Shown here piece after piece: positions 14,201 through 43,288 of a DNA stretch of 48,178 nt. Position numbers and translations under genes: made by a program. The notes under the pieces were generated by a model, which made no database searches, was not told where the DNA came from, and was given only the letters and a program-made list of their open reading frames with translations. The stretch comes from a virus (taxonomy: Duplodnaviria; Heunggongvirae; Uroviricota; Caudoviricetes), in the IMG/VR virus record IMGVR_UViG_3300031853_000008, positions 64,001 through 112,178 of that record; one strand, written 5' to 3'. Numbering within the stretch: the first letter of the stretch is position 1; each line of letters opens with the position of its first letter.

Positions 14201-17200
14201 AAGATGCTAAAATGCTGGATTCTGAACAGGCGGCATCCTGGGGAATCGTTAAGAAAAACAAGTATCGCTCCGCAATATCACTTGCACAGGCGCAAGCAGA
14301 AACCGACACATATGACGAATATTTATCGCAGATCAGTAATGGAATTACCCCTGAACAAGCCTTAAAGAACGCTCTTCCTAAGTATAAGGAAGTGCATACA
14401 CAATACTCTCCTACGGAGTATGATGAACAGAATAATATCTGGAAGACAGCATCCGGGCTTAATTCTTTAAATACCGCTATTGGGAATCTTGGCAACTCTG
14501 CGGAATAGGCGACAGGATCAGTGCAAGGTGCGGCAAATGCCCAGTCGGGACAGGGGGCACAAGGTGGGCAACCCCAACTGAATGGTCAGCCATCTCATAA
14601 TAATAACCCTGTTCCTGTTACTGTACAGGCTGGTGAATATAATACTCCGAATTCGAAATCTATTATTCTTACCCCTCAAGCAAATGGACAGATTTACGAT
14701 AATTCTTCTCGTGTATAGGAGTTCAAGAAAAATTATACTGGGAAGAAGGTAGGAAACGCTACAACGCTTGGGCGAATGCTTGCAAATGCAGATTTCATGA
14801 ATGATACCGCATGGTACAATGAAATCTACAAGGAAGTTGAAAAAGCTTATAAACCTCTTACCGATAAGAAATAGATTTCTAAGTTTAAGTCTGATCTGAG
14901 GAGTGGCGTTAAAGCAGAGGCAGAATATTTAGGTCGTAAGCACGTTGAGGGTGCAGACGAGGCTACAGGGAAGACACTTACTTCTAGAGTTGACTCTGTT
15001 GTCAGCACTGTAATTAATAGTCTAAGTGGAATTGCTCCTGCAGCGGAGTCGGCATCAAATGCACTTAAAGATACTGGAAATAACAATGGTGGATAGGGTG
15101 CTGATACTTCTGAACAGAAGTCTCAAGGGAATGCTCCTGCTCCCGCTCCATAGAAATAGGAAGAACCGCCCAAAAAGAAAGAACAAGTAAAGCCAAAAGA
15201 TAAGATAACAAAAATAGCTTCCTTATAGGAATTGTAGAAAGAATTGCAGCAAAAAATAGATAAGGGTGAGAATCCTGCGAACGCCTATGGGAAACTTTTT
15301 GCGTATCATAAAATTCATGGTAACACAGATGAATTTAATAAGATTTCAGAACAAGTCAAGGCAAAATATACGTCGCTTCCAGAATAGGAAAGAAAGAAAT
15401 TCCAGAATCAGTTTCTTGGTGGTGGGACATCTGAATTTAAACAAATGAATTTAATAAGATTTCGGAGCATGAAGGATGTCTTTAATCCCCCAGAACAGCA
15501 GGAAATTCGACAGCCGAGCTAGAATGCATCTGGAAACTTAGATAATTTAAGGGATTCTATTAATGGGGTTGGGCAAGCAGCATAGGACACCACTCCGAAA
15601 GTTTAGAAAAAAACTGAAGATACTCAATAGGGAGAACCTACACCTTCTGCTCCTACTCCAACGAAAAAGAAACAGAAGAAACAACTTACTTTATAGGAAA
15701 AGGCAAATGCTAATCGCTTACTTAAGAATTCTGAGATCTCAGAGGCTGCGAAGCAAAACACTGCTCTTAACAATCGGGTTAAAGAACTTAACGACTATAT
15801 TGACAGGATCGATAAGAACAAAGAGTCGTTAGGATATTTTAGCGAAGATATTGGCAAGTTCAGAGAGGATATTATTCACGCGCAGGAAGAAGCACAGGCT
15901 CAATTCGAACTTACATACGAAGACCAGAAAGGTAAACCTCGCGCAATTCCAAAAGAAGTCTATAAAAATGCTTAGAAACAGGCCTTAAAGTAGTTTGAAG
16001 GAAATATTCCACAAGAAATTGGAATAGTCATTAACAAACTTAACAACACATCTCCTGCTGTTGACGCTGAAACATAGAGTATGCGTCAAGCGGCTGAAGC
16101 GGCAAAACAAAAGGCATAGGCAGAAAAACAAAACGCTGATGCTACGCAGGACGCAGCTGAAGCAAGCAAAGAAAACGCAGATGCTTCTAAATAGGAAGCA
16201 AACGCAGAAAATGCTCCGTCAGACAACACTCCGCCTGACGATAACGGTCGTCCAAAGAGAAAAAGAGGAAGACCGAGAAAAAACAAAGAAAAGAACTAGG
16301 ATCAGGACGCTCAAGAAAAAAATGATGGTAAGAAAGCAAAGACATATGCGGCGATATTATCTGCGGAAGCTCCAAAATATTATACGTTGGATGAGAAGGT
16401 ATCCAGGGGTAAGTATCTTAGTGCTTTACAAAAGTCAGAATATGCTAAATACAATCCGTATTTTTCAGCCCTCGATATGACTGATAATGATTTTGGTAAT
16501 GCTCTTCAGCTTGCTATTACACGAAAAGAGAATAATTAGAATCTTTCAAGATCCGAACAGGCTGTTCTTAATATTGATAATCTTAAATTAAGAAATAACG
16601 AGCAGCTTTCTAGTTCTCTTGATCTTAGTAAGACTGCTGCGTATATGAAAGCAGTTGGGGATTAGGCAAAATCGATAAAACAAAAATTTGAAAGCATTAA
16701 TACCGATAATTATACTGGAGCAATGGTTAGCGGTTTCCAACAGATTATTGCAGAAGCAGATGCTCTTATTTAGAAACTAGATGAACTTCAACAGAAGTAT
16801 GACAGAGGATAGGCTATCACCGATGATGATATACAAAATATTGTCATTGGCGGAAAGAATTTAAGACAATCTGCACGGGAAAAAGATTTTAAAAAGAAAC
16901 GGCCATAGAATAAGCGCGTAAATAACGGAGAACTTGAAAATTATATCAGATAGGTCGAACAATGGCAAGCCAACAACACTGCTGGGAAATATGCTAATGG
17001 CATGAACATTGATGCTCGTCTTAACAGGATGAGACAGATGCAGCAGAATGGGACGTACAACAGAAAGTTTTATGATGAGGACAAAGCCTATATCAATACC
17101 CAGGAAATTGATCAGATGAAACGTGGGCTTGGGGGCCTTAGTGTTGGGACAAAAATTCAAAACAATATGAAATCCCTTGTTGCCCAGCTCTTCTCTTTCT

Positions 17201-20200
17201 CATCATTTTATCAAATCGTAGATGTTCTGAAACAGTGTTATTCGACTGTCAAAGACCTTGATTCTGCTCTTACCTAGATGCGAAAAGTCTCAGATGAATC
17301 GGTCGCTTCTCTTCAAAAGTATCAAAAGGAAACGTTTGATATTGGCGACCAAATCGGCACCTCTGCCCTTTAGATACAGCAGTCAACGGCTGATTGGATG
17401 AGACTTGGCGAGTCATTTGAGGAAGCTAAGAAATCCGCAAGGGAAACGAGTATTTTGTAGAATGTATCTGAGTTCGAAAATATTGATGACGCTACTAAAG
17501 CTATGGTATCAGCTTCTCAAGCGTATAAAGAAATAGCTAAGTCAGATATTGTAGATAAGCTAAATCAAGTTGGTAATACTCAGAGTATTTCTACTTCCGA
17601 ACTTGCTACTGCTCTTCAGAATTCTGCATCGGCATTGAAAACGTAGGGCAATAACATCGATCAGGCTCTTGCATTGATTACTGCGGGTAACACAACCGTT
17701 CAAAACCCAGGTAAGACTGCGACTGGGCTTAATACGATTGCAATGAGACTGGCAGGAACTGAATAGGCTAAGAATCAACTTGCGTAGTCAGGGGAAGATA
17801 CATCGGACTATATCATTCAGACAAAATCTAAGCTTGATGCTCAAATCAGAAAACTCACGGCAGATGCTTCTAACAACTTTAAGGGAATTAGTCTTCTTGA
17901 TGAAAACGGCAATAATAGAAGCACTTTTGATGTCTTGAAAGATATTTCAAAAATATATGAAAATCTTGTAAAGACAGATAAAGAGAAAGGCACTAACAGA
18001 GTTCCAGCACTTCTTGAATTGATTGCAGGAAAGAAACAGGCGAATATTGCCGCTTCTATTCTTCAAAACCCAGAGGTATTGGAAAATGCTTATAATGAGT
18101 CCGCAAATAACTCAGAGGGGTCCGCTCTCAGCGAGAATGAGAAATATCTTGATTCTATTGAAGGTCGTGCTAATAGAATAAAGAATGAGATTACGGAAAT
18201 TTCTGCGAATTTTATGAAGACTAGAGATGTCAAGCTTGTCATGTCTATTCTATAGAAAATTCTTGATTTCGTTAATGCTATCACAAAAAGTGTTGGGGGA
18301 CTTGGAACTGCTATTTCTCTTGCTATAGGGACAAAAAGCTTCCTAAATAGCGGAAAAGGATGGGCATTCCAATGGAATCAACTGTCAGACGGGACGAGAA
18401 CATTGTCTGCATTCGGGCAAGCATTGCTTGATTTTTCATCCAACCAGAAAAAAGCCAAAGTGGCAATTGATAGCACTTCATAGAGTTTCAAAGGAATGGC
18501 AGCAAATGAACAGCTTGCTGCGAATAATGTAAGCGTTTTTGATATTTTTAATAAGCAAAAGGCTTCTACTCCTGAATCAGGTTAGACTAATTCTAATGTT
18601 GCGAAAGGAATGTTAAAAGGTCTTGGCGGGATTGGAGCTAATATTCTTGGTTCGCTTGCGTCAGGCGTCTTAAACTTTGGCATTAGTGCACTCTTATCAG
18701 CAGGAATTAACCTTATTCTTAATGGGATTATTTACAACTTACCGTCTGAAATTCAGAAACGCGGAGATTAGGCAGCTTCCGATATTCAGAAATCAATTGA
18801 GTCATACAATGAGAAGAAAACTTCTGCCAACAATCTTCTTTAGAAATATCAATAGAATCTTGGTGGGGTCAAAATCAGCAACAACAAGATTTAGAATTTA
18901 TCTCTTACTCAAGAGCAATATCAGGAGTTTCTTGATACAAACAGATAGCTTGCTTCACTTTTCCCAGAACTTGTTACTGGGACCGATGCTCAAGGGAATG
19001 CAATTGTAAACCTTGGAAATAATGCTGAAGAGGCAACAAAAAAGATTCAAGGGCTTGTAGATGTTCAAAAATCTGAGACACAAGAATAGATAGAGGACAA
19101 GATAGACGCTTCTGTAGAGGGAATGAAAAGTAAACAGAAGTAGATTGAACCTGAAATCTAGATCGCTCAATAGGAATTAGATGCTATTAAACCGTATGTT
19201 GGCTCACATATGGGCAATCATGTAAAAATATATGACAATGGGACATTTCAATTCGATAGCGGGAACGCTTCTGACGCTTATACAGAAGCACTTATGCAAA
19301 TAGCGAAAGAACAAGGATTATATTCAGATGGTTCATCATTAGAAGGAGCTGGTTATTTCTATGACAAGTAGGGGAATGCTCCAAGTGAAAAAGCCTTAAA
19401 GAAATTGCAATACGCTATCAGGCAAGATAATAGCGTGGCGGATATTCTGACGCAGCAAAATTATAATGAGAAAGCTTCCCAACTGTCTCAATACAAGAAA
19501 CAGCTACAGGCGGCAAGCAAGAAAGTAGGGCTTAATGTAGATGCCTTATTCCAGACTTCTTTCTATTATGACACCTATACCCCGGAAATTCAAAATCTAC
19601 TTGACAATGTCTTAAAGAATATTGATTACTCAAGCTTAGACTATACGGAGTTTGGAGATTTATCAACTTGGTTATCAGATGGTTTTATTAAGTCTTTTAA
19701 TACTGCTATAGCATAGGCAGAAAGTCATGGGATTGACGAAAAAGATTTTGCTAAACAGTTGAATGACTTAATTGATTTAGATACATCAAAGTTAAATGCA
19801 AAACAAATCAAAGATAAAATCCAAAGTGCTCTGACATATCTTATCCCAGATGAGACGTTACGTAAAGACATTGAAGTGCAACTTGGTTATGTTGTTGTTG
19901 ATTAGGATGGAAAACCTGTCACTAATGATAAGGGTGAATTTGTCTATAAAGCATAGCAAAAAGCTGATTAGGCACAAGATGTTCTTTCTCAAATCAAGGG
20001 GAGCAAATTGTCTGCCGATTTCGCTAAAGGCTTAAATCAAACGCAACTTGATGCTATTCTTTCTATAAGAGATGAACACGGAGGGGCTGTAAATAATTAT
20101 ATTGATACCTCTAGTGATCAAGCTGCTAAGAAGAGTCTTGACGAATATGCGAAGCGAGAAGCGAATAAGAAGCGTACAAACAAATTTAGTAGCCTTCTTG

Positions 20201-23200
20201 GCATGACAGAAACTGAACCAGAAACATTGTCTGATAATATCGCACAAACTGCAAGTTCTGTTAACACTTTAAATAACGCAATTCAAGAATTTAGTCTTGG
20301 GGAACTTACCCCAGATAGCATGGCTGAATTATCAGGAAAATTCGCATAGCTTGTTGGATTTACTGGTGATTGGGGATAGAAATTAAAGGGAATCAAAAAT
20401 GCGAAAATAATGTATCTTATTAAAGATATCATTAATTAGGCGCAAACAGGTGACTTATCTCCAGAGCAGTTCTCTAAAGTTCCGGCTTATATCGCTCAGA
20501 TGATCCAATTTATGGGAGGAATGTAGATATCCTCCGTTCAGGCAAGTTCTCTGTTTACCGATATGGCTAAAGACTACGTTCCTGAAGGTCAAACGCCAGG
20601 GGAACGTATACTGTTTATCGGCAAAGTTGCAAGAGATAACCTAGATTTATTCGCTGACGAAGCAGGACGCTAGGCAGTATTGTAGTTGTCGGCAGACCCA
20701 ACATTGGCTGAAGATACTCTGGATCAGTGGTTAGAAAAAGTAAAAGCAAGAAAAGCAGAGGTCGAATTAGATATTGATTCTAGAGAAGCGGATAAGTAGC
20801 TTGAAAAAATTCAGCATGAAGCTGAAAACATTACAAAAACCAAAAATTATGCTTCATCTGGAATAGAATATAAAGAAGCATCTGGACAAGTATTGTCCCC
20901 AGAAGATTATGATAAACTCATTGAGCAGGACGAAAAGCTAAGAGACAAAGCACGAGATGAAGCTAGGATAGCCGGGCAAAAGATTAGCAAAGCAAAAACA
21001 AAAAAAGAAAAAGAAAATGCACAGGCCTAGTACGACTCAAAAATGGCGGATGTCAATCAAGCTAATACAACCCTTACAAAAGACCAACAAGCCCAATCTG
21101 ATGCATAGCTGAATGATGAAATCAACACATTAAATCAACTTCACAGTGCCGCACAACAGGCGCAAGAGGTAGTTGATAATCTTATAAAAAACACAGGAGT
21201 CGCTACTAAATAGAGTTATAAAACGTTAATTGATAACGCTAATGCCCAACTCTCTTCTTTATAGGTTGAAAGAGAAAAATACGAAAACGATATGTAGTCG
21301 TCAGAAAAAGGAACCGAAACCTATACTGAGGCACTTAAAAATCAGACTGATACAATCCAAGCAGAACAGCAACTTTTATAGCAGATTCATGAATGGCAAA
21401 AATCTCAGAATGAGATTCCTCTTACTCAATATCAACAATCATATCGATAGATACAGAATGAAGAATCTGAGATTAATAATCAAATTACTGCAGCCGAAAC
21501 AAAAAGGCGAAAAGTATCAGTAGGAACATATAAAGATTTAATTTCTAATGGGAAAAAAGAATTAGATAATCTACAGCATCAGAAAGATGAACTTGAGAAG
21601 TTAGTAATGACTGCGGGGAATCAAGTAGATAAGCTTGATTATCAATAGAAACTATCAGATGTAGAATCTAATATTTTTTCTGTACAATCCAAGATTCAGG
21701 GATATTCTGATACTTTAATATCATTAGTGTCTACAGCAGCGGCGAATCTCTCCTCTGCTCTCTCTTCTGCACTCGACGAAGTTAACTCTCAGACTGGGTT
21801 GACCACAGATACAATACACCAACTTGAATAGGCGTTTTCCGACCTTAATGGGATGGATGCCTCTACCCTCTTCTACCAGTCGGCGGACGGCATGAAACTG
21901 AATGCTGATGCAGCGGCAGACCTAATTGAAAAAGAGTATCAACTCAGCGCAATGGATCTCCGGAGTAACATTGCAGAACAGAACAATATTATAGAGCAAA
22001 GCACTAACCTCACAGAAGAAAATCGTAATGCAGTTGTGTCGGCGGCGCAGGATAAGATTTCTGCTTACCAGCAGGAACTTGCGCAGCTTCAAGCTAATTA
22101 TGATGCTCAACAGGACGCTCTCTCCGGCTATCAAGCATGGCAACGGGCACTGTCCAGTGAGAATCCAGGCAAGAGATACGAGGACATCCAGGGGGCGTTG
22201 AAGAACGTCAAAGAGTTATATGATAATGGTGAAACTGGGACAGACGATTTCCGTTCCTATGTTTCTATGCTTGATTCATATGGGCGAGATTCAGTAAAAG
22301 CCTATTAGGATGATATTGCGACTTGGGAGAAATATTTTACAGAAGATACTTCTGGAGTTTTTGCATTCATGGATGACCTTGTGGCTAAACATTATGGGAC
22401 CTATAATGAGCAAACTGGTTATGCTCTTGATTTCAGTAATGTGGATCAAGCCGCAAAAGATGTTAATCTATCTCCTGAAACATTCAACTATATGCGTGAT
22501 CGCACTAAAGACCTTGGGGCACTGGATGTTACTGTTGAATCTACTACGGATGGAATGGTTCAACTGGCAGAAGCTACCAAACAAGCCATAGATGAAAAAG
22601 AACGTCTCAATCGAATGAAGGTTGAAGGGGCTGACGCTGATGCCTTAAAGGATCAACAGAGCGAAATTGTTGAAGCTGAAACAAGAATCAATCTTATTCA
22701 GCAGAATATGTAGAATGTCGAAGCCCGCGAGGGTAAAGTGTCAAGTAAACAAATCGAAGCAGTTAGACAGAATCTTCTTACACTTGATACTATGCGTCAA
22801 CGCGCCCAGAATGGTGTTAAGGGGTATGACCTTAGTACTATTGAAAAATAGATGACAGAACAGGCACAGTCTATTGGAATCACTCTTGACAATTTTGAGG
22901 TTAAGAATGGGGCATTAGACAAAGCGATTAAAGACGCTATGCCTGACTATGAATAGCTTAATGTCGTCCCGCAAGTAAAAAATACCAATGTTGACTAGGA
23001 GCATGGATATAACGAATCCCTTATTGGCGGGGATGAAGAGAAGCAAAAAGCGTTTGACACCGGGCTTGAAAAAAGCAAGAGCGCATTTAAGTCGGATAGT
23101 GAAGGGCTTCAGGAATATATCGATACAATCAATCAATTCCCGAAAGAAGATCTCGAAAAGATTCAGATGAGGGACGGGAAATATGATGAAGGATACCGCA

Positions 23201-26200
23201 AAGCGGAATAGGCTCTTGACGCTATTGCTAAAAAGTGGGAACTTTCGAAAGAACAAGCTGAACAAATTGTCCCAATTCTTGAGCAAATGGGGCTTATCAG
23301 TGGCGGAGAACAATGGTACGAAAATAAGAATCTCCCACAATTCAATGGGTCAACTGGCACAAGCATAAATAACTATTAGAGTTGGCGAAAGGATATGGGA
23401 ATTGTACAAGGGTCGGGTGATTTTGACCTTAGTACAATGTCAGATGAACAAGTAACAAACAAACTTGCTTCTCTCCAATCCAATCAGAAAATGATGATGG
23501 AGCTTGGGCTTGATGACACGCCCGCTAAGAAAGAACTCGATAGTTTAATTTCCGAAGTACAAAAAGAACATGAATTCCGTGTAAAGATGAAGACATTGAC
23601 TGATAGTAGCGGAAACTCTATCAGTGCAAATGAACTCTTAAACATGGATAAATCTTCCAGAGACAAGATTATTTAGTAGCAGCTTCATATCAAACCCGAT
23701 ACCGCTGAATATGACGCATTTATGCAGCAAGTGACTAACCATTCAGCAGTACAGGAGATTCAGACTCATATCGCTAGTGGGGATCTCACAATAGAATAGG
23801 TGAACCAAATGTTAACATCTGGAGATGTTAGCAAGATGGTTGATTTAGGCATTAACCTTGAAGGGGCTGACCTTGATACAATTAAGAAAATGCTGAATGG
23901 GGAAGGCTCAACTATGACTGTTGAGATTTCTACAGGGCAAATGGATGAATTAACTGGGGCTATCTCAGCTGGTGTTGACACAAATGAAGCGCAGAAAAAG
24001 ATTAAAGAAGTCAGCTAGATGGCTTCCCAATCCAAACCTATGATGCATATCAAAGGGGATAATGCTGATGTTAGACAAAAAGCCACGAAAGCTAGCAGAG
24101 ACATTTCTAATATGCAGCCACTTATGCATATTTATGGTAATAATGGGCAAGCATTAAATTCCGCTGAGACGGCTAGAAAATCAATTGCCAACAATCCGGC
24201 ATATATCAAGATTCATGCATTTACTGGAGGTCTTGGGACTGAGATTAGCAACGCTCTTGCCGCAAGAGAATTCCATGTAAGGGTACATGGAGATGTCACA
24301 ACTGGCGGGGTAGCTACTGGCACTGCAAACGCTAGAGGCGGAAAAGCATTTAATACTTATGCTACTGGAACACAGGATTGGGCTATTCCAAATGACCAGG
24401 TTGCGATTGTCAATGAACTTGGGAATGAATCTATCATAAGAAACGGTAAGTGGCACAAGATTTCAGGCGGGGCGCACTTTGAGAATCTTAAGAAGAATGA
24501 CATTATCCTATCGGCTAACCAGACTAAGGCTATAGAAGAAGCAAAGGCTTATGACAAAGGGACTATTAGTTCATACGCAAAGGGTTCTAAAAAGAAGGGG
24601 ATTTTCTCAAGAATTGCTTCTGTTATTTCTAATGTCATTACTGGGAAATCCGCAAATACGAAAGAATACAATAGTTGGAAAAAAGGATTAAAACAAGACG
24701 TTGATTATGTTAAGAGCAAAGGCGTTGACCCAAATAAACATCAGTATGGAAATATTGATACGAATAATCGTCAAAAGATTCATTGGGATAATAAGACTCT
24801 TAAGAAGAATAAGAGTGCTTTACAATCCTGGGAGTTTCAACGTGACGAGCAAGGGAATCCTATCAGAGATGAAAAGACTGGAGACTTTGTCTCCCGTCCT
24901 TGGAATGACATAAAACAAGATTTTAAGGGAACTGACTCTACTGTTTATGGTGCAAGCGGCGAACTTTCCAATGGGCAGCAAGTTGCATTCTCTCCCATCC
25001 AACAGACTAAGAAGGGTGCGGTTCTGTTAGACAGACGTGCCGTGTATTCCTATCTTGAGGATATTGCAAAGAGGGCAAATGGCGACCCGAAATAGATGTA
25101 TCGTCTTGATAAGAGAGAAAAGAGCCTTATTGCCGATATAGGAGATACAGCTGAATTAACTGGATAGATGATGCACTGGACTGGTTCTACGAGCCAGATT
25201 GGCGAAGATATCCGGGAAATGCTTAAGTATGCGAAGTTATCCGGGAAATCTGGTGAAGCTAACAGTTTGCTTAAGCAATTAGGATTAGCCTATGCAGAAG
25301 GAACTATTCCGTCCTATTCTAAGGGTAGGAGTATGGGACTCGCATATGCTAATGGCGGTGCGGTGGACGAGAATGGCTAGGCGCTTGTCAATGAAACTGG
25401 CGAGGAATCCATTGTTCGTAATGGCAGATGGTTCAAGATTCCGGGTGGGGCACATAAAGAAAAACTCAAAAAGGGAGATATTGTGTTCGATGCCAAAAAG
25501 ACCGAAGAACTTCAGAAATATGGAAAAGTTAAATCTGGAGATAAACATGGTCATGTGGCATACAATGATGGTACTGCCGATGATGAAGATTTTGAATAGT
25601 TTGTAAGTGGCTCTATCCCAGCTTATGCTACTAGTAGTGCGTCAAACAGATTTAATCCAAAAGCCCCCCACACCCAAGGAAAAGCATTTAAGAACAAAAA
25701 GAGCAGTAAAAAATCTGGTAATAAAAATAAAGGCAAAAACAAAAACAAAAATAAAGCAAAAAACACAAAGAAGGCTTTTGATGAATTCAAGTAGTGGCTT
25801 GGCGATCTCTTTGATTGGGTCGAAGTCCGGCTTGACCGTGTAAAGGCTCAGATTGATCTTGCAGCTCAAAAATCGGAAAATGCAATTCTTTACCAAAATT
25901 CTACAGCCGCGGCAAAGAACCAACACGTTAATACTGAAATCGCACGGACAAGAGACCTCATTAATGATAACACTATCGGGGCGCAGACCTATCAAAACCA
26001 GGCAACAAAAGTAGCGAATAAAGCTGTTGCGTCTGGAGTGATCAGCCGTTCCAAGATGAACAAATACATTGAGCGTATTAAGTCTGGTGACCCAAGGCTT
26101 ATTGAAGATTTGTATGCAGAGTATGGCAATGATTCTGATAAAGCCGAGAAGATCAAGACGATTATCGATGGGTACAAACAGTGGTACGACAAGTCGCAAC

Positions 26201-29121
26201 AATGTGTACAGTCGGCGGAGGAACTTCGTGGTTCTCTGCATGACCTTGCGCAAAAAGAACTTAGTAATATTACTGAACATTATCAGACGTGGCTCGATTT
26301 ACAGAAACAGATTAGTGATAATGCCGCAGGATTTGTCACATACGCTAATGCTAGTGGCGTAACCGATAATTCTAACTTCATCAAAGGGCAATATGATGCT
26401 CAGATTAGTGCAGGAAATAACCAACTTGGAATTCTGACCCGTGAAATGGCGGAATATAGTGCAAAGATTAGAGAATTCCAGAGGCAATCTGATCTTGGTA
26501 TGCCAGTTAATTCAGATGCGTGGGGAACAGCGATTAAGTAGCTTCAATCTATGAACAATCAGTATGTCGAACTCTTGAGCACTGTCCAGGATTTGAGGCG
26601 TACAAAGTTTGAACTTGATTATAAACCGATTGATTATGCTATTAATAGACTCACCTCTCTGATTGACAAATCAAAAGAAATCATTAAATTGAGACAACAG
26701 CTTGGTAAAAATAAGATTGCCCCAAGCCCGTGGGATGTATAGCCGTAGGAGTCAGATTATATTGAAGTCATTAAGCAGTCGAACGATTTGATGGCTGAAT
26801 ACCAGAATACAATCAATAAAGCGAATCAAGAAATCAAAGATATGGGAGATTCATTCGATTCCGACAAATATGAAGCCGAAGTTCAGAAGATCCGCGAAGC
26901 GGAAAAGAACATTATCTCTCTTACTGGCAGCATCATGGATCTGAAGAAGGAAATCTTCGGAGTTAGATGGAAAGGGTTTAACGACCTTGAGACTAAGATG
27001 CAAGAGGTTAATAGCGATCTTGAGCATCTGTCAGGACTGATTGATGACAATGAAATGTATATTGGCAAGTGGGGCACTGCTCTCTCCGATTATGGTTATG
27101 CAAAACTTGCTCTTATCGGGAAAGAACTGGCAAATGACGAAGACCAGATTGCAAACTTCCGTTAGGCAATTAAGAAGCTTGGGGAGCAAAAAGCAAGCGG
27201 GTTTATCAATGAAGAAGTCTACCAGTAGAACTATAAGAGTTACAAGAAAACACTGCAAGACTACGTTAAGAACGCAAAATCCGCACAGGAACAACTCGCT
27301 AAAATCTACACGCAACTTATGTAGAACGAAAACGAGCTTCTGCAAGACAATATTAGCAAACGAAAAGAAGCTCTTCAGGCAAAGAAAAATTACTATGAAT
27401 GGGATAATACCATTCGCCAAAAGAATAAAGATATTCTTAGTTTGCAAGCACAAATAAATGCTCTTAATGGCATTTCTTCCATGAGCGGACAAGCAGAACG
27501 TGCTCGACTTCAGTCTCAGTTGAGTGACGCTCAAAAGGATATGACAGACACAAGGTTCGGTCATTCGATTGATATGCAGTCGGCTGGCTATGACCGTATG
27601 GCAGAAAACGCTAATACCGCACTTAAGGATATTGAGACAGCGATTGAGAGAAGTTCTGCACTTCAGCAACAGATTGTCAATGATATGCTTGACAAGATGT
27701 CGCAGAATGCAAGTACTGCATTTGCTGGAATTCAAGATATTATTCTGAACACGCATACCGCGGTTGAAGAAGAAACTGCTAACCAGATTGCAGAGTTCCA
27801 GAACGAGCGTTCTGCAATGGATGCGGTTGCAAGTGGAGTTCAGATTCCTGTATAGGTAAAGGCTTCTGATAATGGGGAAGCGTTGACCATCAGAACCCTT
27901 ACAGAACATTTCCATGAACTTGTGAAAGTATTCTCAGATAGGGAAGACCTCGTTACGTTCCCACAGAAGACTACGTCAAGTGTCAAGATCAACATCGATA
28001 CGAATACACAAGATGCGATTAAAGCATTTGATTCACTCACGGAAAGTATTAAGAAGATTGGTGATCAAGCACAAGAGTCTCTTAACAAGCTGAAAGAATT
28101 GAACACGTCACAAGCGAAACCTTCAACATAGGCTACTGGAGTTAAGACAAATGATGTCAATACATTAACCCTAGGGAATCAACAGACTGTCAAAGATGTT
28201 TCAAGCGGTAAAAATACTTCTATCGCATAGGCTACGGGTGAAGCAAACAAAAAGGCAACAGAACAGAAAGTGGCGCAGCAAGCCGCAGCCGCAGCAGCTA
28301 GAGCAAATGTATCTAAACCAGCTCCTGCTCCCGCACCAAAGCCAGCTCCAAAACCAGCACCAAAGCCAGCTCCAAAACCAGCTCCGCTCACCACTCAAGA
28401 TGTATTGTTGGATTATCTTAACAGGATTAATTCAATGCTTGGAAATAAAAAACTACGTTGGACGAGGATTAAATTACAGCAAGAAGCTATGAAATACGCT
28501 ATCGATCATCTTGGGAGACCACATGCTGAAGGTAAAAAACTCACTAAGAAGTAGAGAAGAGAAGCAGGCAGCCTAAAAAAATTACTAATTACTAAATATG
28601 GAAAAACAGGGGGTAATGGGCTTTATGCGTGGTTAGGACGGCTTGGGCAACGCGAAGTAGCAAATCCTAGTAAGATTACTTGGTAGGAAGCGGAGAAAAT
28701 TGCTGACAGAATGAAATCCCTTGGGTTAAAACGTGGGACAAAAAATTATCGTGGTAATCAAGTCGGTTGGATTGATGAACAAGGTGCGGGATCTGAAATG
28801 ATTATCCGTAAGTCTGATAATGCAATTCTTACCAGACTTCAAGCAAACGATGCGGTTGTTCCAGCAAACCTGACCGATAATCTCTGGAAATGGGGAGCGA
28901 TCTCACCTGACAAGTTTATTTCCAAGACAAACAATGAAATGAAACCACATAATCTGCAACACATTGACAATAATATCAACGTTACTTATGGCAGCTTGCT
29001 CACTGTTAATGGCAATGTTGATAAGGACGCTTTGCCGGGACTCTAGTAGATACTTAAGAAAAGCTATGAGTACACGACAAAGTAGTTAAAACGAGAAGCT
29101 AGAAAGACTGGTTTTCGTTAA
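11239..29121 (+). CDS. Giant tail tape measure protein (5,960 aa)
   Basis: Frame +1 has no TAA/TGA for 17,883 nt (scanned line by line) and about 130 TAGs by manual count. The TMP core starts near 17170 (KDLDSALTXMRKVSDE...STADWMRLGES...LITAGN). C-terminal motifs include FDWVEVRL, SKRKEAL and GSEMIIRK...VVP. Confidence 0.9.
28315..28386 (+). repeat. Coding tandem repeat (PAPK)n in the tape measure
   Basis: Degenerate 12-nt units CCAGC(T/A)CCAAA(A/G) encoding KPAPAPAPKPAPKPAPKPAPKPAP. Confidence 0.9.
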
Positions 29122-34464: not shown

Positions 34465-35493
34465 ATGGCAAATATTATTTGTACTGGCGATTATACGATT
34501 ACTGATTTTAATGATGCGATTTCCCTTAGTGGATATATCGGGGCAAATCTGCCTCATACACAGATTTACTCTCCTGATAATGAATCGTACACCCCAGATT
34601 GGAGTGATGAAGGCGGGGCGCTGATCCTTACCCCGGAATTATATGTTACTTCTACAACTGCAAATGTTATCACAAGTTCTGCTGTAACAAAGGTAACTTG
34701 GTATAAAGATGCAGAGAAGACCCCTATTGCCACTGGTGGAGAATATTCTCTTAGTGGAGCGAAGTCTCATATCCTTACGATTAACAAAAATATCCTTGCA
34801 GATGTGAATTCTGTAAAGTTTATCTGTGTAGTGGATTATTTAGATTCCACTACGGGTCTTAAACTGAAACATAAGATGGATATTACATTTACTCTGGTAG
34901 AATCTGGTTCTGGCATCGCAGACGCTCTTGCTCTTTGCCCGGAGGGAAATGTGTTTAAGAATGGGACGATTGCTTCCCTTACAGCGACTTGTGACCTTTA
35001 CCGTGGTTCTACCATTGATACTACGGACGTGAAATATCAGTGGTATAAGAAGGATACTTCTGCAAGTACAGGATGGACAGCTGTTAGTGGGGCAACCACT
35101 CATCAGCTTACTGTCAAGCCGTCTGACGTACCGAATGTGGCTGTGTATAAGTGTGTTATTACTGACGGAGAAGGAAAGAGTTATTTCGATACTGTAACTT
35201 TTACTGATTTATCTGATCCCATTCAGCTTACGATTGTTTCTACTGGGGGGGACACATTTAAGAATGGTAACGGCTCGACTACCCTTACAGCTAGACTGTT
35301 CCAGGCGGGGAAAGAAATAGATACGAATACTCAAAGCCCGCAGCACGTTTATAAGTGGTACAAGTATGACAAGGATGGAAATCTTGTTAAGGGATATGGC
35401 GGGACAAACGTAGATTATAAAACAGGAAAGACCCTAGCGGTCTCAGCTGATGATGTAGATACAAAGGCAACATTTAGATGCGAAGTTGAGTAA
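34465..35493 (+). CDS. Ig-like domain tail protein (342 aa)
   Basis: GGAGG RBS, TAG-free ORF with three repeated beta-rich units (FKNG..TLTA.L...Y.WYK...C.V). Confidence 0.75.
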   Translation: MANIICTGDYTITDFNDAISLSGYIGANLPHTQIYSPDNESYTPDWSDEGGALILTPELYVTSTTANVITSSAVTKVTWYKDAEKTPIATGGEYSLSGAKSHILTINKNILADVNSVKFICVVDYLDSTTGLKLKHKMDITFTLVESGSGIADALALCPEGNVFKNGTIASLTATCDLYRGSTIDTTDVKYQWYKKDTSASTGWTAVSGATTHQLTVKPSDVPNVAVYKCVITDGEGKSYFDTVTFTDLSDPIQLTIVSTGGDTFKNGNGSTTLTARLFQAGKEIDTNTQSPQHVYKWYKYDKDGNLVKGYGGTNVDYKTGKTLAVSADDVDTKATFRCEVE

Positions 35494-35555
35494 TTGAAAG
35501 ACTAAGATTCCGAATCTTTAGTCTTTCATGATTAAAGATTCGGAAAGGAGAAAAC

Positions 35556-38500
35556 ATGGCAAATAAAACAATCATTGGAGTTGGGGAATATACAATAAAA
35601 GAGATATATGACGGCAAATCAGGAGTTGGAGTATAGAATATAAGATACTACTATCAGATTTCTAATGATGATAAAAACCCGCCGACTTATTGGACGGATG
35701 TTTTGCTTGAGACAGCATCACAGGTTATCCCGACCAAAGAGAACCCTTATTTGTGGGCGTATCAGGAAATTGCTTATACTGATGGGACTATCACAAAAAC
35801 AGATCCTCAAATTGTTGGTGTGCGCGGGGAAAATGGAACAAGCGTAACAGTATCGGCTATTAAATATCAAGCGGGAGTTTCTGCTACGGATCATCCTACT
35901 GGGACATGGTCTGCCACTCCTGTAGCCGTTCCCGAAGGTCAATACCTCTGGACTTGGACACATTATTCAGACGGCAAAGATGCCTATTCTGTGGCGCGCC
36001 AAGGGAAGAACGGAAATGATGGGCGTGGAATAAAAACGATACAAGACTACTATCTCGCTTCTCCAAAAACTAGTGGAATTACCACCTCTACAGATGGTTG
36101 GGACACAGATCCAGAAAAACAAAAAGTTTCAGAAGATAAAAAATATTTGTGGCACTACACAATGACCACTTATTCTGATGGATCACATAGCGAATCAACC
36201 CCTACTGTTATTGGTGTGTTTGGGCAGGATGGACAGCCTGGTAAGTCAATAGATCAGATTACTGTACAATATGCGGTTAGTACGTCTAGCACTGATGCCC
36301 CGGCTGATTCTGAATTCAGGGATACTCCCCCAACAACTGACGAGCTTAACGGGGAAAACCAATGGTATCGGTACGTTTATCATTACAGTGATAAAACGAC
36401 AAGCTATTCTGCAAAAATGTGTGATGTGGAATTTAACAATCTGAAATTCTTAGTTGATCAAAATACACAAGCAATAGAAGCTAGGGTAACAACTGATAAA
36501 TTCAACACTGTAGTTGGGGAAGACGGTTAGAGAATCACGAAGATGGATTCGGATCTGACACAGGCAAAGGCGGATATCTCAGGCCTGCAGACTACGGTAT
36601 CGAGTCAGAAGACCGAGATTAATAAGAAGGCGGATGGTTCGACGGTCTCTCAGATGCAGACAGATATTTCCAATCTTCAGCAGACCGATAAGGATATCAC
36701 TGCTTCTGTCGCAAGTACAAACAGTAAAATCGATAGTATGAAAGTCGGCGGGCGAAATCTTGCGGCTATCTCAACGTCTATCGATGGACATCGCCTTGTA
36801 GAAGGTTACACTTACGATGGCTATTCAGACCCAGGGTTCAGGCTCAGTGCGAAGATTGCATGTGTAGAAGGTGATGAGTTCACCGTAAGCACCAACGCAG
36901 CTGGTACTCTCTCGTTTGCATGGTGCGACTCTTCTGACTCTGTGTTCAGTAGACCAACTGGGCATTATAACGCTGCAGTTGGCTATAAATAGACATTCAC
37001 AGCGCCGTCGAAGGCATCGTATTGTGCTCTGTCTTGGGAAAAGTCTACACTTGATGGTCATATAAAGCTTGAGCGGGGGAACGTGGCTACAGATTATAGC
37101 CCTGCCCCTGAAGATTATTATGATTATACAGACACTCAGATGGCTAAATTCCAAATAGAAGCAGATAAAATCGATGCAATGGTCAGCAACGTGAACTCTA
37201 AGTCTGAGATCACCCTTACTCCGAATGCCATCAGTGCGATATCTGATAATATAGAAATTAAGACCACAGACGGAAAGACACTTGCGATTAAAAATGGCAA
37301 GATTCAGGCGAACGCTATCACAATTGGAGATGTCAGTGAATTAAGCGAAGACTTGACATCATTAGATGCGAAGGCTAGCGATGCCGCAAAAACCGCAACG
37401 GAGTATATCACGGATATCGATGGCGGGGGGATAAGTGTACATGACGCAAATAACAAAGACAACGCTGTACATATTACGAGCACAGATATGACTGTAATAC
37501 AAGGTGGGAAAAAGATTGCAAAATTTGGTTCTTCTGTCGAACTAGGAACGTCCGCTAATGCTTTTGGAAAATCCTCCTTCTCTTTGGGCGAAGCATATGC
37601 TTTTGGAGATAGAAGCCATTCTGAAGGGCGTAATACCTTTGCATTTGGTGATTATTCTACAAATTTCGCTACTGGGGAAAAAGGAGACATAGGGGGGGCG
37701 ATTCCTGAAGCTGGGATAATAGGAATAAAACAAAAAATAGCTTATGCTCCTTCATTAAATGTGGGACCCCAAGTATATAGAGTTGATTACAGTGTTGATT
37801 CAAGCATACAATTTTCCCCCTCTCTTAATTTCCAAGATATCTGCTTATATGATGTAGTATATTTATCAAATAATAGCCAAGGATGTTATATGTATGTAGT
37901 TACTATTGACTACAATGAAAAAACTCTATCTTGTTCTGGGAGAGAACTAGTAGATCATGCAACTAAATTACAAATTGCTTCATCTAGCGTGACTGTAGGA
38001 AGAGCTTCTTTTAATTCTGGGGAAAATAATAAAGTTATTGGAAGAAATTCATTTTCTGAAGGTGAAGAGAACTATATTAAAGGCAGCTACTCTCATGCAT
38101 AGGGCTATAGAGTCAGGATAAGCGGAGCTTACTCCCACGCATAGGGGGCTTTTGCACAGGCTAATAATATGTTTTCGCATGCCTAGGGGTTAATGGTATA
38201 TGCAAATGGAATGTACTCTCATTCAGAGGGTGGAACAGATGTTGTATTTGTTAAACTAACTGGAGATGCTCAATCCCAAGAATATACATATACGGTAAAT
38301 AATAATGATTTTATTACAAAGGGTTTATCGACTGCCCCGTTGGTAGGGATGGAATTACGCACCATCAACGGATAGTCAGCAATTGCGAGAATTATTTCGG
38401 TCGATCATAGCAACAATAAAATCACCTTAGACCAATCTATTTCATCTGATTCTATAAAAGATAAACAATATGTTCTCCGTAAGTTAGCGGGGGCGGACGG

Positions 38501-40019
38501 GGACTACGCTCACAGCTAGGGTCGTGATGCTTCAGCAAACGGCAACTACTCTCACGCCTAGGGGTATCACACATAGGCGAATGGGGAAGCTTCTAATGCT
38601 TCTGGATATAATGTGCGGGCATCATCTAAATTCCAGCATGCTTTTGGTTGTGCAAATATCGAAAATGATGACCACGTGTTTGTTGAATTGGTCGGCAACG
38701 GAAGCCCTATCCACCCAAATGTTCGCGAGATATCTAATTTACAGGTGACCACCCATGATTATCAATATTTAATCGTGAATTCTGATGACACTGTGATTCA
38801 AGATTTCCCTAAGAATTATACGGATGACATAGCGCGAAGCAAAGGCGATTGGGTAGAAAATCTCCCAGATGCTCAATCTGGAAAATGCGCAATAGAACGT
38901 GTTGAATGTATTTTACAGAATGGAAGTTCTGTTTATTACCCAGACACAAGAAAATATTTTCAGGAATCAAACGGATCCTGGGCTGTGCTCACGTCAACTG
39001 AAGACGTAGAAGGGAGTGGCTCTTCTCCTATATATGATTCTGGGTTAATGGATCCCATCAAAGTTAAATCTCACTATCAATAGTATTTATTAACAGATTA
39101 TTCTGTTGCTGCGCATGTTTATGCTCTTCCAGCTGATTACGAATAGGATAATCCCAACTGGGTTTCTTAGCAACCACCAGTTCAATAGGGGAAAATATTA
39201 GTTGAAAGAGAAACATATATCTATGATAATGGAACTTCTTCTCATATTGTCCATAATGATGAGTTTTGGGATGTAAATTCAGAAACGAACGAATGGACAT
39301 TAATGTTGGTTGCTGAAGAAAGTGATAGATCTTATAGTTCAGGGCTTGAGGACAATAATACTTCAACGGTAGAAACTCCTACTATCGGCAAAATATAGGC
39401 GGAGAATCTATCTGGGGCTGACCCAGAAGATCCTACTGGCTCGAAAACGATTGCTTATTCTAACGCAAGAACTCTTGACTGGAACGGTAATGAATGGCTT
39501 GCGGGAAAATTGACTGTAGGAAAGCCCCCAACCAATGATATGGATGTCACTACAAAAAGATATGTTGATACCGCGGAGGCACAGGCGCAGACGGCTATCA
39601 ATGCGTTAAACCAGAGTCTGAAAAACCAGATCGATGCGGCGAATGAAAAGATTGAAACAAATGCTTCTGCAATTGAAACAAATGCTTCTGCAATCTCAGA
39701 TAGCCAGACAGCGATTAATACGTTAAAAAAAGGTTTAACAGATACAAATACTAAGGTGGACGCATATTCCGGCGGACAGTATATGCGGTTTTTTCAGCTG
39801 CCTGCAAAGAGTTCTGTCACCATTGGATATAGATACAATAGTTTTGCCGTTGCAATCATTACAACTACAAGGGACCATTCAGCGGTTGTAGCCTTAACAA
39901 ATAGCCACGCCATTGTACTAGCAGGTAGTTTGCAAGGCATCTCCTTTTCGGCAGGCACCAACAGTTGTAAGATCACCAGTTCTCTTAACTGGGTATGCCC
40001 GATATATGTGATCGGCTAA
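35556..40019 (+). CDS. Long tail fibre / receptor-binding protein (1,487 aa)
   Basis: AAGGAG RBS and ATG 35556. TAGs join six track ORFs in one frame. Contains YLW..Y.DG repeats, a coiled coil, SHA(E/X)G repeats, SNARTLDWNGNEWLAG and a variable tip after 39739; ends TAA. Confidence 0.85.
39576..39646 (+). repeat. 71-bp perfect direct repeat, copy 1 (copy 2 at 41141-41211)
   Basis: GAGGCACAGG...GCGGCGAATGA is identical at both loci and in frame in both fibre genes (EAQAQTAINALNQSLKNQIDAANE). Confidence 0.95.
39651..39692 (+). repeat. Exact 21-nt tandem duplication (one heptad, IETNASA)
   Basis: ATTGAAACAAATGCTTCTGCA occurs twice in tandem. Confidence 0.9.
39722..39739 (+). other. Putative invertase crossover site 1
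   Basis: GTTAAAAAAAGGTTTAAC, an imperfect palindrome resembling hix/cix (AAACC-AA-GGTTT), read as LKKGLT in the fibre frame. Confidence 0.65.
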
Positions 40020-40036
40020 TATTCGTACGCTAGTGA

Positions 40037-40351
40037 TCACATGGCATATACATTGGCAGTACCGTTTTTCATTGTCGTAGTATCGACTATGACATTACCT
40101 GAAAATCTTATAAGAGTACGACTAATGCTGATAAATGCCTTTTGTACATGAACAGAACCATCGGGTCCATGCCATAAACTTGCAGATACAGCATATGCTA
40201 CTTCAACGTCAACTAAATTTAGGGTAGGAACTACCAAAGTCATGGGATTTGAATCTCCCCATGCTGCTTTAATGACAATTATCAAAATATTGTATTTGCT
40301 ACTATCTATCGTAATAGTAGTGGTACTGTTTACCTTCCCCAGAAATTTCAT
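40037..40351 (-). CDS. Silent alternative tail-fibre C-terminal cassette (about 104 aa)
   Basis: The minus-strand ORF MKFLGKVNSTTT...ANVYAM converges on the expressed tip and is preceded by YTINEGLT, in the same phase across site 3 as NTLKKGLT across site 1. Confidence 0.7.
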   Translation of the reverse strand: MKFLGKVNSTTTITIDSSKYNILIIVIKAAWGDSNPMTLVVPTLNLVDVEVAYAVSASLWHGPDGSVHVQKAFISISRTLIRFSGNVIVDTTTMKNGTANVYAM

Positions 40352-40352
40352 C

Positions 40353-40370
40353 GTTAAACCTTCGTTTATC
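40353..40370 (-). other. Putative invertase crossover site 3 (inverted relative to site 1)
   Basis: Minus strand reads GATAAACGAAGGTTTAAC, with the same right arm and AA core as site 1. Confidence 0.65.
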
Positions 40371-40397
40371 GTATAGATAGAAAGAAGAGGAATAGAA

Positions 40398-40718
40398 ATG
40401 TACTCAAAAATCCTGCAAGGCACAACGCCCAGTCTAATCATCCATGTCGAAGATGTAAGCCTGTCTCTGACATCGGAGATAGAACTGACCATCCGGCAGG
40501 GCGAGACGATCAAGATATACCATCTTGCTGATGTTATCCTGGATGCGTCAGCCGGAACGATAACAAAGTATTTTTCGGAAGCTGAGACGCTTGCCCTCGA
40601 TCCTGCCAAGATGATGCAGTGGCAGTTGAGGGTAAAGTTTACAGACGGCAATATCACCGGAACGCCGATACAGTTACTGAGAGTGAGCGACCTGATTTCA
40701 GAGGAGGTGATGTCGTGA
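40398..40718 (+). CDS. Small baseplate upper-protein-like (BppU N-terminal type) protein (106 aa)
   Basis: GAGG RBS, QGTTPSL...QLRVKF.DG motif, TAG-free. Confidence 0.6.
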   Translation: MYSKILQGTTPSLIIHVEDVSLSLTSEIELTIRQGETIKIYHLADVILDASAGTITKYFSEAETLALDPAKMMQWQLRVKFTDGNITGTPIQLLRVSDLISEEVMS

Positions 40719-41638
40719 AACTGGTTGATAATGTCATCAAGGCAGATGCGACACTGGGTGTTAAGGTCGAGCCGTATGATGACACGGAACTGAGGGAGCG
40801 TGTCGAGGCTCTGGAGCAGAAACCAGACAAGGACACTGTCTACGATGACACCGCCTTATCTGCCAGAGTGACCGCACTGGAAAACCGTGAGGACAAAGAC
40901 ACTGTCTATGATGATACTGCCCTGTCCGAGAGAGTCACTGCACTGGAAAACAAGCCAAACACAGCCTATGATGATACGGCGATCCAGTCTCAGCTTGATG
41001 CTGTCATCAAAACGGAAGACAGCAGTGCGCCATGCACGTACTCTGCCGGAGACTTTTTCGTGTACGACGGCAAGTTGTACAAGGCTTCCGCAGACTTTTC
41101 CGCCGTCACGCTGACCGCTGACAATATCAGCACTTACGCAGAGGCACAGGCGCAGACGGCTATCAATGCGTTAAACCAGAGTCTGAAAAACCAGATCGAT
41201 GCGGCGAATGAGAAAATCGACACGAACACGAATAATATTGCAACGAATACGAGTGCAATCAATACGCTAAACAACGGTTTAACAGTAAAAGATATTACGT
41301 CTCAATTAGGGGCACCCAGTGGGATGAAAGTAGTTGAAATTGGTAATATATTGTATATCAACATAGCTGGAACCAAGGTTGAAGACGTTAGACAGTGGCA
41401 TATCCCCAAAGAGTATTGCTCATCTCTTGGTAACGTAAGATTTTCTGGAATTGCAACCCAAAGTACAAACGATACAGGCAACGCAATAGGGCTGCCAGCG
41501 TTGCTTGCGTATCCCGGAAAAGATAGTGCTTCTGGAAATACTAGTTTAATGTGGGTTACGGTAATTAATACAAGTTGGAGATGGCAAGTGATTTCGTCCA
41601 GATACTACATTTTTGCTAGTGCTGTTATACCTCTATAA
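40715..41638 (+). CDS. Second fibre/adhesin-like protein with YDDT repeats (307 aa)
   Basis: GTG 40715 follows GAGGAGGTG and overlaps the previous TGA. Contains YDDT..L..RV.ALE repeats, the 71-bp repeat, and site 2 (41266-41283) before a distinct tip. Confidence 0.7.
   Translation: MKLVDNVIKADATLGVKVEPYDDTELRERVEALEQKPDKDTVYDDTALSARVTALENREDKDTVYDDTALSERVTALENKPNTAYDDTAIQSQLDAVIKTEDSSAPCTYSAGDFFVYDGKLYKASADFSAVTLTADNISTYAEAQAQTAINALNQSLKNQIDAANEKIDTNTNNIATNTSAINTLNNGLTVKDITSQLGAPSGMKVVEIGNILYINIAGTKVEDVRQWHIPKEYCSSLGNVRFSGIATQSTNDTGNAIGLPALLAYPGKDSASGNTSLMWVTVINTSWRWQVISSRYYIFASAVIPL
41141..41211 (+). repeat. 71-bp perfect direct repeat, copy 2
   Basis: Identical to 39576-39646. Confidence 0.95.
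41266..41283 (+). other. Putative crossover site 2 (direct orientation)
   Basis: GCTAAACAACGGTTTAAC shares the GGTTTAAC arm and reading phase (LNNGLT), but its core is AC rather than AA. Confidence 0.5.
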
Positions 41639-41669
41639 CCTCGAATCCATCAATCACTAGGAGGCACCC

Positions 41670-42841: not shown

Positions 42842-43288
42842 ATGACAGAATTTAAGGGTAAGAAAATTACCTAGCTTAATGAAACCACGGAACTTACAGA
42901 TGAATCCCTCGTGCTCGTTGGTGAGAGCAACGGGGGGACATTGAGCCAAGCAACGGCAAAAACATTAAAGGATTATGCTACAGCAGATCTAGCGACCAAG
43001 GCATCCGTCAAGGCTAACACAGATGCTCTTGGTGGTCACACGATCAAGAGTGACGTTCCGGCAGATGCGAAGTTTACGGATACGGTATACGATGACAGCG
43101 AGATAAAACGCAGAGTAGCGGTTAACGCATCGGACATTGACGATGTCTATAACCATCTGGAGCAGGGCTTTCAGATGGTACAGGCAAAGCAGGATGCGAC
43201 TCCGTCTTCCGCCCTGACCGACCCTGCTATGATCTATGCGAAAGTTAACAATACGGACGTAGCAAATAGCTATCACAAGAGATTTTAA
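42842..43288 (+). CDS. Fibre-related small structural protein (148 aa)
   Basis: AAGGAGG RBS. MTEFKGKKITXLNE joins track ORF 42911..43288. Contains SDVPADAKFTDTVYDD motif. Confidence 0.65.

Follow-up and report, generated by a model that had tools for sequence, protein, structure and literature searches.

Can a tail-fibre gene in a rumen phage end in either of two tips, exchanged by inversion of the DNA that encodes them, and which enzyme would carry out the exchange? The question is raised by a 629-bp segment in the IMG/VR virus record IMGVR_UViG_3300031853_000008. The window, meaning the whole stretch of 48,178 nucleotides analysed here, is the last 48 kb of this linear record of 112,178 bases, for which CheckV estimates a completeness of 66% and whose ends show neither a terminal repeat nor an overlap. 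Positions are those of the window unless they are called genome positions. The sequencing runs that contain the phage are bovine-gut metagenomes. Our favoured reading, to which we assign a probability of about 0.45, is that the segment is a minimal tail-fibre inversion cassette of the Gin/Cin/Pin type that still flips with the help of a borrowed serine invertase. As to the origin of the locus, a cassette made by an invertase appears to be the best account of its anatomy, its codon phase, the shared centre of its sites, their rank in a search for Din-like sites and an apparent scar in relatives.

Tail-fibre gene 1 (35556..40019, + strand) encodes 1487 amino acids in an open reading frame (ORF) that needs 15 in-frame TAG codons to be read as sense. 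It is a single 1487-amino-acid gene call on the ENA contig, and its PHROG matches are to tail and tail-fibre proteins (1e-18 to 1e-20). The constant part of the fibre (1394 residues) closes with a coiled-coil module, followed by a site, here called A, and by the tip that is joined to the fibre at present, tip A (39741..40019, + strand; 92 amino acids, DTNTKV...PIYVIG; stop codon TAA at 40017-40019). Facing it on the minus strand is tip B (40037..40352; 105 amino acids, MKFLGK...ANVYAM; stop codon TGA at 40039-40037), an intact, silent, inverted cassette whose ATG comes directly after site B. The tips converge with 17 nt between their stop codons and contain no in-frame TAG, as a preliminary description of the window had stated from the letters alone. 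When the 629 bp between the central dinucleotides of sites A and B were inverted in silico, the new junction read ...SDSQTAINTLKKGLTMKFLGK...ANVYAM in frame up to the stop codon, and fibre 1 ran on without interruption to end in ...INTLKKGLTMKFLGK...ANVYAM and the same stop. The predicted in-frame exchange of one tip for the other is borne out by this inversion.

Tip B has coding-like codon usage. Its codon-usage score is 0.18, where native genes of the phage score 0.37 +/- 0.11 and antisense frames -0.32; the tip of a second fibre gene (tip C) scores 0.15, tip A 0.02 and the small gene P0004 0.01. These intermediate values would fit imported modules. Neither tip A nor tip B has relatives in IMG/VR. 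Among 1.84 billion representative proteins, tip B retrieved its own fragment and two repetitive proteins judged spurious, and in a collection of 5.8 billion clusters it retrieved itself alone, at near and longer lengths. A single-sequence AlphaFold2 model of tip B was unusable, with a predicted local distance difference test score of 43.5.

The 18-mers pointed out in the preliminary description, GTTAAAAAAAGGTTTAAC at 39722-39739 (+) and GATAAACGAAGGTTTAAC at 40353-40370 (-), are present and belong to a longer repeat of 22 nt, ATACGnTAAAnnAnGGTTTAAC, located at 39718-39739 (+), 40353-40374 (-) and 41262-41283 (+) and reaching up to 26 nt with its flanks. Against these three matches, 0.00 were expected from 100 shuffles. 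No fourth copy with three or fewer mismatches was found in the 112-kb genome, where one other match has four. Independently, a repeat search paired A with B (22 nt, 86%) and B with C (33 nt, 79%). Written in a 12-2-12 layout, site A (39718..39743, +) is ATACGTTAAAAA AA GGTTTAACAGAT, with its central AA at 39730-39731, and is read T L K K G L T. Site B (40349..40374, -) is ATACGATAAACG AA GGTTTAACGATG, its centre appearing as TT at 40361-40362 on the plus strand, and site C (41262..41287, +), oriented as A, is ATACGCTAAACA AC GGTTTAACAGTA. A and B are inverted with respect to each other and bound the 629-bp segment between their central dinucleotides. The layout confirms that A and B have the right arm, the AA core and the codon phase in common; the phase, ACG-xTA-AAx-xAx-GGT-TTA-ACx, extends to site C. 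Serine invertases require an identical central dinucleotide in partner sites, and the AC of site C makes B x C inversion or A x C deletion unlikely as designed reactions.

Site C lies in tail-fibre gene 2 (40715..41638, +), which has a likely GTG start at 40715 overlapping the stop codon of the preceding gene. This gene repeats the arrangement of fibre 1, with a coiled-coil module of the same type (124 nt, 84%), then the site, then tip C, and the two fibre proteins are wholly divergent beyond sites A and C. While A and C both terminate a coiled-coil module, B stands alone, and its likeness to the other two ends sharply at about 26 nt, exactly where the intact 105-codon ORF of tip B begins. The preliminary description has to be amended on one point. 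The small conserved gene P0004 (40398..40718, +; 106 amino acids) has a conserved leader that includes the outer half of site B (ATACGATAAACG), and this half-site also occurs in other phages, without tip B. Long-range RNA pairing is an unlikely cause of the inverted repeat, as changes in the upstream arm (ACG to ACA or ATG) are uncompensated downstream.

A resemblance of the sites to hix and cix had been proposed, and it proved measurable when they were compared with the Din-family crossover sites in Table 3 of PMC3241671, where the Din (dix) consensus is printed as TTC---AAAC- -A -GTTT---GAA. The sites largely keep TAAAC-N-NN-N-GTTTA, the inner Din consensus. Of the inner positions shared by hix, gix, cix, pix and mix (AAAC - -A - GTTT), all nine are found in B and most in A and C, and site B is identical to cixL at 13 of 14 inner bases. 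The inner 16 bp of eight published Din sites were combined into a symmetrised matrix, which was scored at 112,163 genome positions; B ranked 1st, C 3rd and A 34th. Judged by rank and place, the likeness appears non-random. In P1 (NC_005856), the S gene reads ...CTT GGT TTA AGA... over cix and the Sv' side reads CTA AAC CTT GGT TTA; cix is read in the GGT-TTA (Gly-Leu) phase, as here, and the shared half-site likewise lies inside the segment. The exact site pattern matched an unrelated protein motif (TNTLNDGLT) in other phages of IMG/VR and nothing else there, and the intact B-type pattern had 0 matches in JGI metagenome contigs.

The correspondence with the classical switches goes beyond the sites. 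In P1 (C/Cin), Mu (G/Gin) and e14 (P/Pin), as in this locus, the crossover site links a constant fibre in frame to either of two variable parts that converge, with the shared half-site inside the segment, GGT-TTA read as Gly-Leu and an inner TAAAC-N-AA-N-GTTTA with a central AA. The present phage differs in having no invertase gene or known enhancer beside the segment or anywhere in the 112 kb, in its outer TTC/GAA positions and in scale, with just 629 bp, tips of ~100 amino acids and no chaperone genes (U/U'). It also reads TAG as sense, is seen in one orientation and has relatives whose lysis genes suggest a Gram-positive host. A parallel for the missing enzyme comes from the bifidophages 689b-1 and Bb423phi2, in which an orphan inversion of ~500 bp has no flanking recombinase (Mavrich et al. 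2018, PMC6109161). That locus likewise combines a small gene with the 3' end of a neighbouring structural gene, offers dissimilar alternative ends, has a very short crossover (8 bp, CAGGGTTA) and lacks an adjacent recombinase, an invertase in trans being proposed there. In contrast with the present locus, both orientations were seen there, in two prophages; its site sequence differs and no link to Din was drawn. In the Rin shufflon of bifidophages and the R64 shufflon (Rci), as in our locus, short sites mark the constant/variable junctions, the C-terminal cassettes are small, unlike one another and often annotated as separate genes, and the rationale is one of host range. They differ in having several cassettes and an adjacent tyrosine invertase, whereas here there is one silent cassette, serine-type sites and a recombinase 69 kb away.

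Relatives of the P0004 module suggest how the locus may have come about. Homologues of P0004 with >90% identity are found in small siphovirus-like contigs called without recoding, and the module, which is mobile, has ~92% nucleotide identity to standard-code siphoviruses. In most of the siphovirus loci, where tip C lies upstream, a fibre of 328-348 amino acids consists of the coiled coil, the site (ATACGTTAAACGAGGGTTTAAC) and tip C, and its stop codon abuts the P0004 leader directly; the element at the end of tip C, CTATAACCTCG (41633..41643, +), is what joins the leader in these relatives. The reverse complement of the siphovirus leader, ATCTATACGATAAACGAGG-TTATAG, is a degenerate copy of inverted site B, in which 17 of the first 19 bases match, one core base is missing and the inner half is lost. 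Homology between the window and the siphovirus loci begins at 40357, inside site B, and that of tip C stops at 41643, with the P0004-side and tip C blocks overlapping by AACCTCG; the outer half of site B therefore travels with the P0004 leader. The degenerate copy reads as the scar of a lost cassette. On the simplest reading of these alignments, the ancestor of the module would have had an invertible segment just upstream of P0004; the siphoviruses would then have lost its silent tip by deletion and been left with a damaged site, and the present phage would have kept both intact.

The junction is also used by other tips. In contigs of other phages from the same samples, the same coiled coil leads into yet other tips at precisely GGTTTA, as in GLAQLYPVGSIY, which was also seen in L007. 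No inverted tip was seen in the contexts of P0004 homologues, covering the distant ones and the short contigs of closer ones, and the P0004-leader pattern had 0 matches in IMG/VR. A second tip antisense to tip C in the siphoviruses was considered and rejected, since every copy has a TAG at codon 12 and L013 has an additional stop. In ENA contig k149_570466 (L015:5821-5982), the tip C of a relative's fibre breaks off 13 residues past GLT and gives way to the P0004 leader with a site-like GATAAACCTCGTTTATCGTAT; the variant arose either by natural deletion or by chimeric assembly at the site. Logan contigs of a run resembling the source break at the shared coiled-coil module (39576-39646 and 41182-41281), where short contigs with 3x depth lead into other tips, indicating that several related phages with different tips co-occur in one sample. 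At the DNA level, contigs L008-L017 are 90-96% identical to the window at 40357-41643 and 42997-43227, which hold P0004, a large part of fibre 2, tip C and one more block. The shared modules contain no TAG and these contigs are called with the standard code, which points to recent module exchange between a large TAG-recoded phage and standard-code phages.

The favoured reading implies a Gin/Cin-style switch by design, with the enzyme possibly supplied in trans. A small serine invertase would bind both 26-bp sites as dimers, cut at the shared central dinucleotide and rotate the segment, so that the constant part of fibre 1 would end in tip A, the state observed, or in tip B, and the two tips would presumably bind different receptors. 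Site C, with its central AC, would not make a productive partner. The enzyme could come from the part of the phage that the assembly, at its estimated completeness, does not cover, from the host or from a co-resident prophage.

Several observations weigh against a switch that is active in this way. In Logan contigs of two runs, X1 (39617-41170, depth 35) and X2 (39698-40463, depth 17), sites A and B are crossed without a break and in the reference orientation, and no joint with a change of strand was reported for either run. An ENA contig (112,828 bases) and a JGI contig (46 kb) have the order and orientation of the record, JGI metagenome contigs do not contain the predicted flipped junction, and a fusion of the fibre with tip B was not found among ~15 billion predicted proteins. 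Of the Mu G- or P1 C-like invertible cassette proposed in the preliminary description, the anatomy is there, from the constant fibre through site, tip A and reversed tip B to the inverted site, whereas the flipping was not seen. Since minor variants are lost from contigs, in which a minority form cannot be seen, their single orientation speaks against a fast balanced switch but leaves room for one that is slow or conditional. The enzyme is also missing. The earlier remark that no invertase is in view holds for the whole 112-kb record, in which there is no match to the Resolvase family (PF00239), a tblastn search with P1 Cin gave a 14-amino-acid match (E = 2.2) and nothing Cin-like, and no recombinase occurs among the neighbouring and downstream ORFs, which include an endolysin (Amidase_2, Glucosaminidase, SPOR), an aminotransferase and a DUF6088 protein. 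At the sites, the outer TTC/GAA positions of Din are unmatched (1/6 in B), and binding by an enterobacterial Din enzyme is therefore not expected; the matrix score of site B (15.7 bits) is not above the top score of shuffled genomes, so that the evidence lies in the coincidence of rank and place and not in the score; and site A, the partner within the expressed gene, is the weakest match. The loci in which relatives of the P0004 module lie are prophage-like and carry lysis genes of the LysM, CHAP and r1t/Dp1-type holin kinds. Such genes suggest a Gram-positive host, in which a Fis-dependent Din enhancer is not expected. Finally, tip B has its own ATG with GAAGG 7 nt upstream and could be a separate gene.

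Some of these observations also speak for a frozen relic, a cassette built by an ancestral invertase that this phage has lost. The segment would then no longer flip, the fibre would always end in tip A, and tip B would be silent DNA awaiting decay or deletion. We regard this as somewhat unlikely. Besides the missing enzyme, the one orientation in every assembly and contig and the absence of the flipped form from all collections searched, it is favoured by the siphovirus relatives, which show a lineage of the module losing the inverted tip and leaving a damaged site. An intact tip B is no proof of selection, given that the copies of the phage are at least 99.98% identical over 6.3 kb. What speaks for continued function instead is that site B is intact and the top Din-like site of the genome, that the 105 codons of tip B are stop-free at a genome A+T of 59% with their coding-like usage, and that the record is perhaps only two-thirds complete. 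A lower probability attaches to the absence of any programmed inversion, with tip B an independent minus-strand gene or a by-product of module shuffling through homologous recombination and the repeat just a conserved module boundary. The start codon and plausible ribosome-binding site of tip B fit this, as do the gene callers, which give a 68- or 104-amino-acid gene; in protein collections, tip B is found only as a free ORF of these lengths from the present phage. Its nearest ESM Atlas feature matches are free-standing phage proteins of ~100 amino acids (score 0.93, a lead only), and the junction is a general point of tip exchange among relatives. Such an origin nevertheless leaves unexplained why the 26 nt before the ATG copy the fibre junction codon for codon (I-x-T-I-N-E-G-L-T), inverted and with Din-like spacing. 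There is, moreover, no promoter-like site within ~550 nt upstream of tip B on the minus strand, the nearest being at 40938-40911, and tip B would be a lone minus-strand gene in a plus-strand late operon. We consider it improbable.

Over the whole record, the search for an invertase yielded no serine enzyme and a single recombinase in the record, an Xer-like tyrosine enzyme of 320 amino acids at genome positions 34603-35565 (-), ~69 kb upstream. It is very unlikely, in our judgement, that this enzyme flips the segment as Rin and Rci do, using AAGGTTTAAC as the overlap region. It carries a Phage_integrase domain (8e-33) and weakly matches models of tyrosine-type DNA invertases (1e-14), and there is a documented case of a phage tyrosine invertase that works on cassettes of receptor-binding proteins (PMC6109161). 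Its best matches, however, are XerA, XerC and XerD models, all below their curated cut-offs, and its place in the early region, remote from the cassette and next to a ParB/DndB-like ORF, suits integration or dimer resolution. The sites themselves resemble those of serine invertases (12-2-12 with a 2-bp centre) and not the 11-6/8-11 cores of Xer, and no copy of the site lies near the recombinase gene. The features of a tyrosine shufflon are likewise incomplete: no invertase lies beside the cassettes, there are three sites and one silent cassette, and C belongs to a separate, complete fibre gene. The neighbouring ORF encodes 283 amino acids with a DGYHRW motif, and its ParB/DndB likeness was judged by eye; together with the recombinase (G000:C1:33148-36657, L001, a region outside the window), it may form a resolution or partition module in the style of plasmid-prophages.

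Tail-fibre inversion switches are a well-known class (PMC9881135), to which this locus probably adds a member; it stands out for its host setting, for the recoding of the phage and for its minimal design. A bolder reading, in which we place less confidence than in the favoured one, is that of a working Gin/Cin-like serine-invertase switch in a TAG-recoded rumen phage, possibly with a Gram-positive host, reduced to 629 bp and two tips of ~100 amino acids, with no chaperones, an enzyme in trans and no Fis, and with scars left in siphoviruses. If the Gin/Cin-like reading is true, Din-type fibre switching would extend well beyond enterobacterial phages. If the segment flips, host-range switching in the style of Mu and P1 would also be used by large alternatively coded gut phages, in a stripped-down form of tips only with a borrowed enzyme, and host-range predictions from one assembly could miss a second receptor specificity. 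If it does not, the locus would be a tidy case of switch decay. The siphovirus scar could serve as a sequence signature for spotting lost or orphan cassettes.

Some further features concern the phage as a whole. Its DNA had no match among 50,697 phage records, and the protein P0014 and fibre 2 have no relatives in GTDB species genomes. ORF analysis shows that the late genes are open only when TAG is read as sense. The extreme case is an ORF of 5960 codons (11239-29121, +) with 132 in-frame TAG codons; it lies directly upstream of the tail genes and is unusually long even in comparison with a tape-measure-like protein. Fibre 1 contains a series of xSHxEG repeats (38100-38560, residues 849-1002), in which the copies with GAA or GAG give SHSEG or SFSEG, whereas in five sister copies TAG stands in the place of GAA/GAG (SHA-TAG-G, AHS-TAG-G). 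This pattern fits the possibility that TAG means Glu, and not Gln, in this phage.

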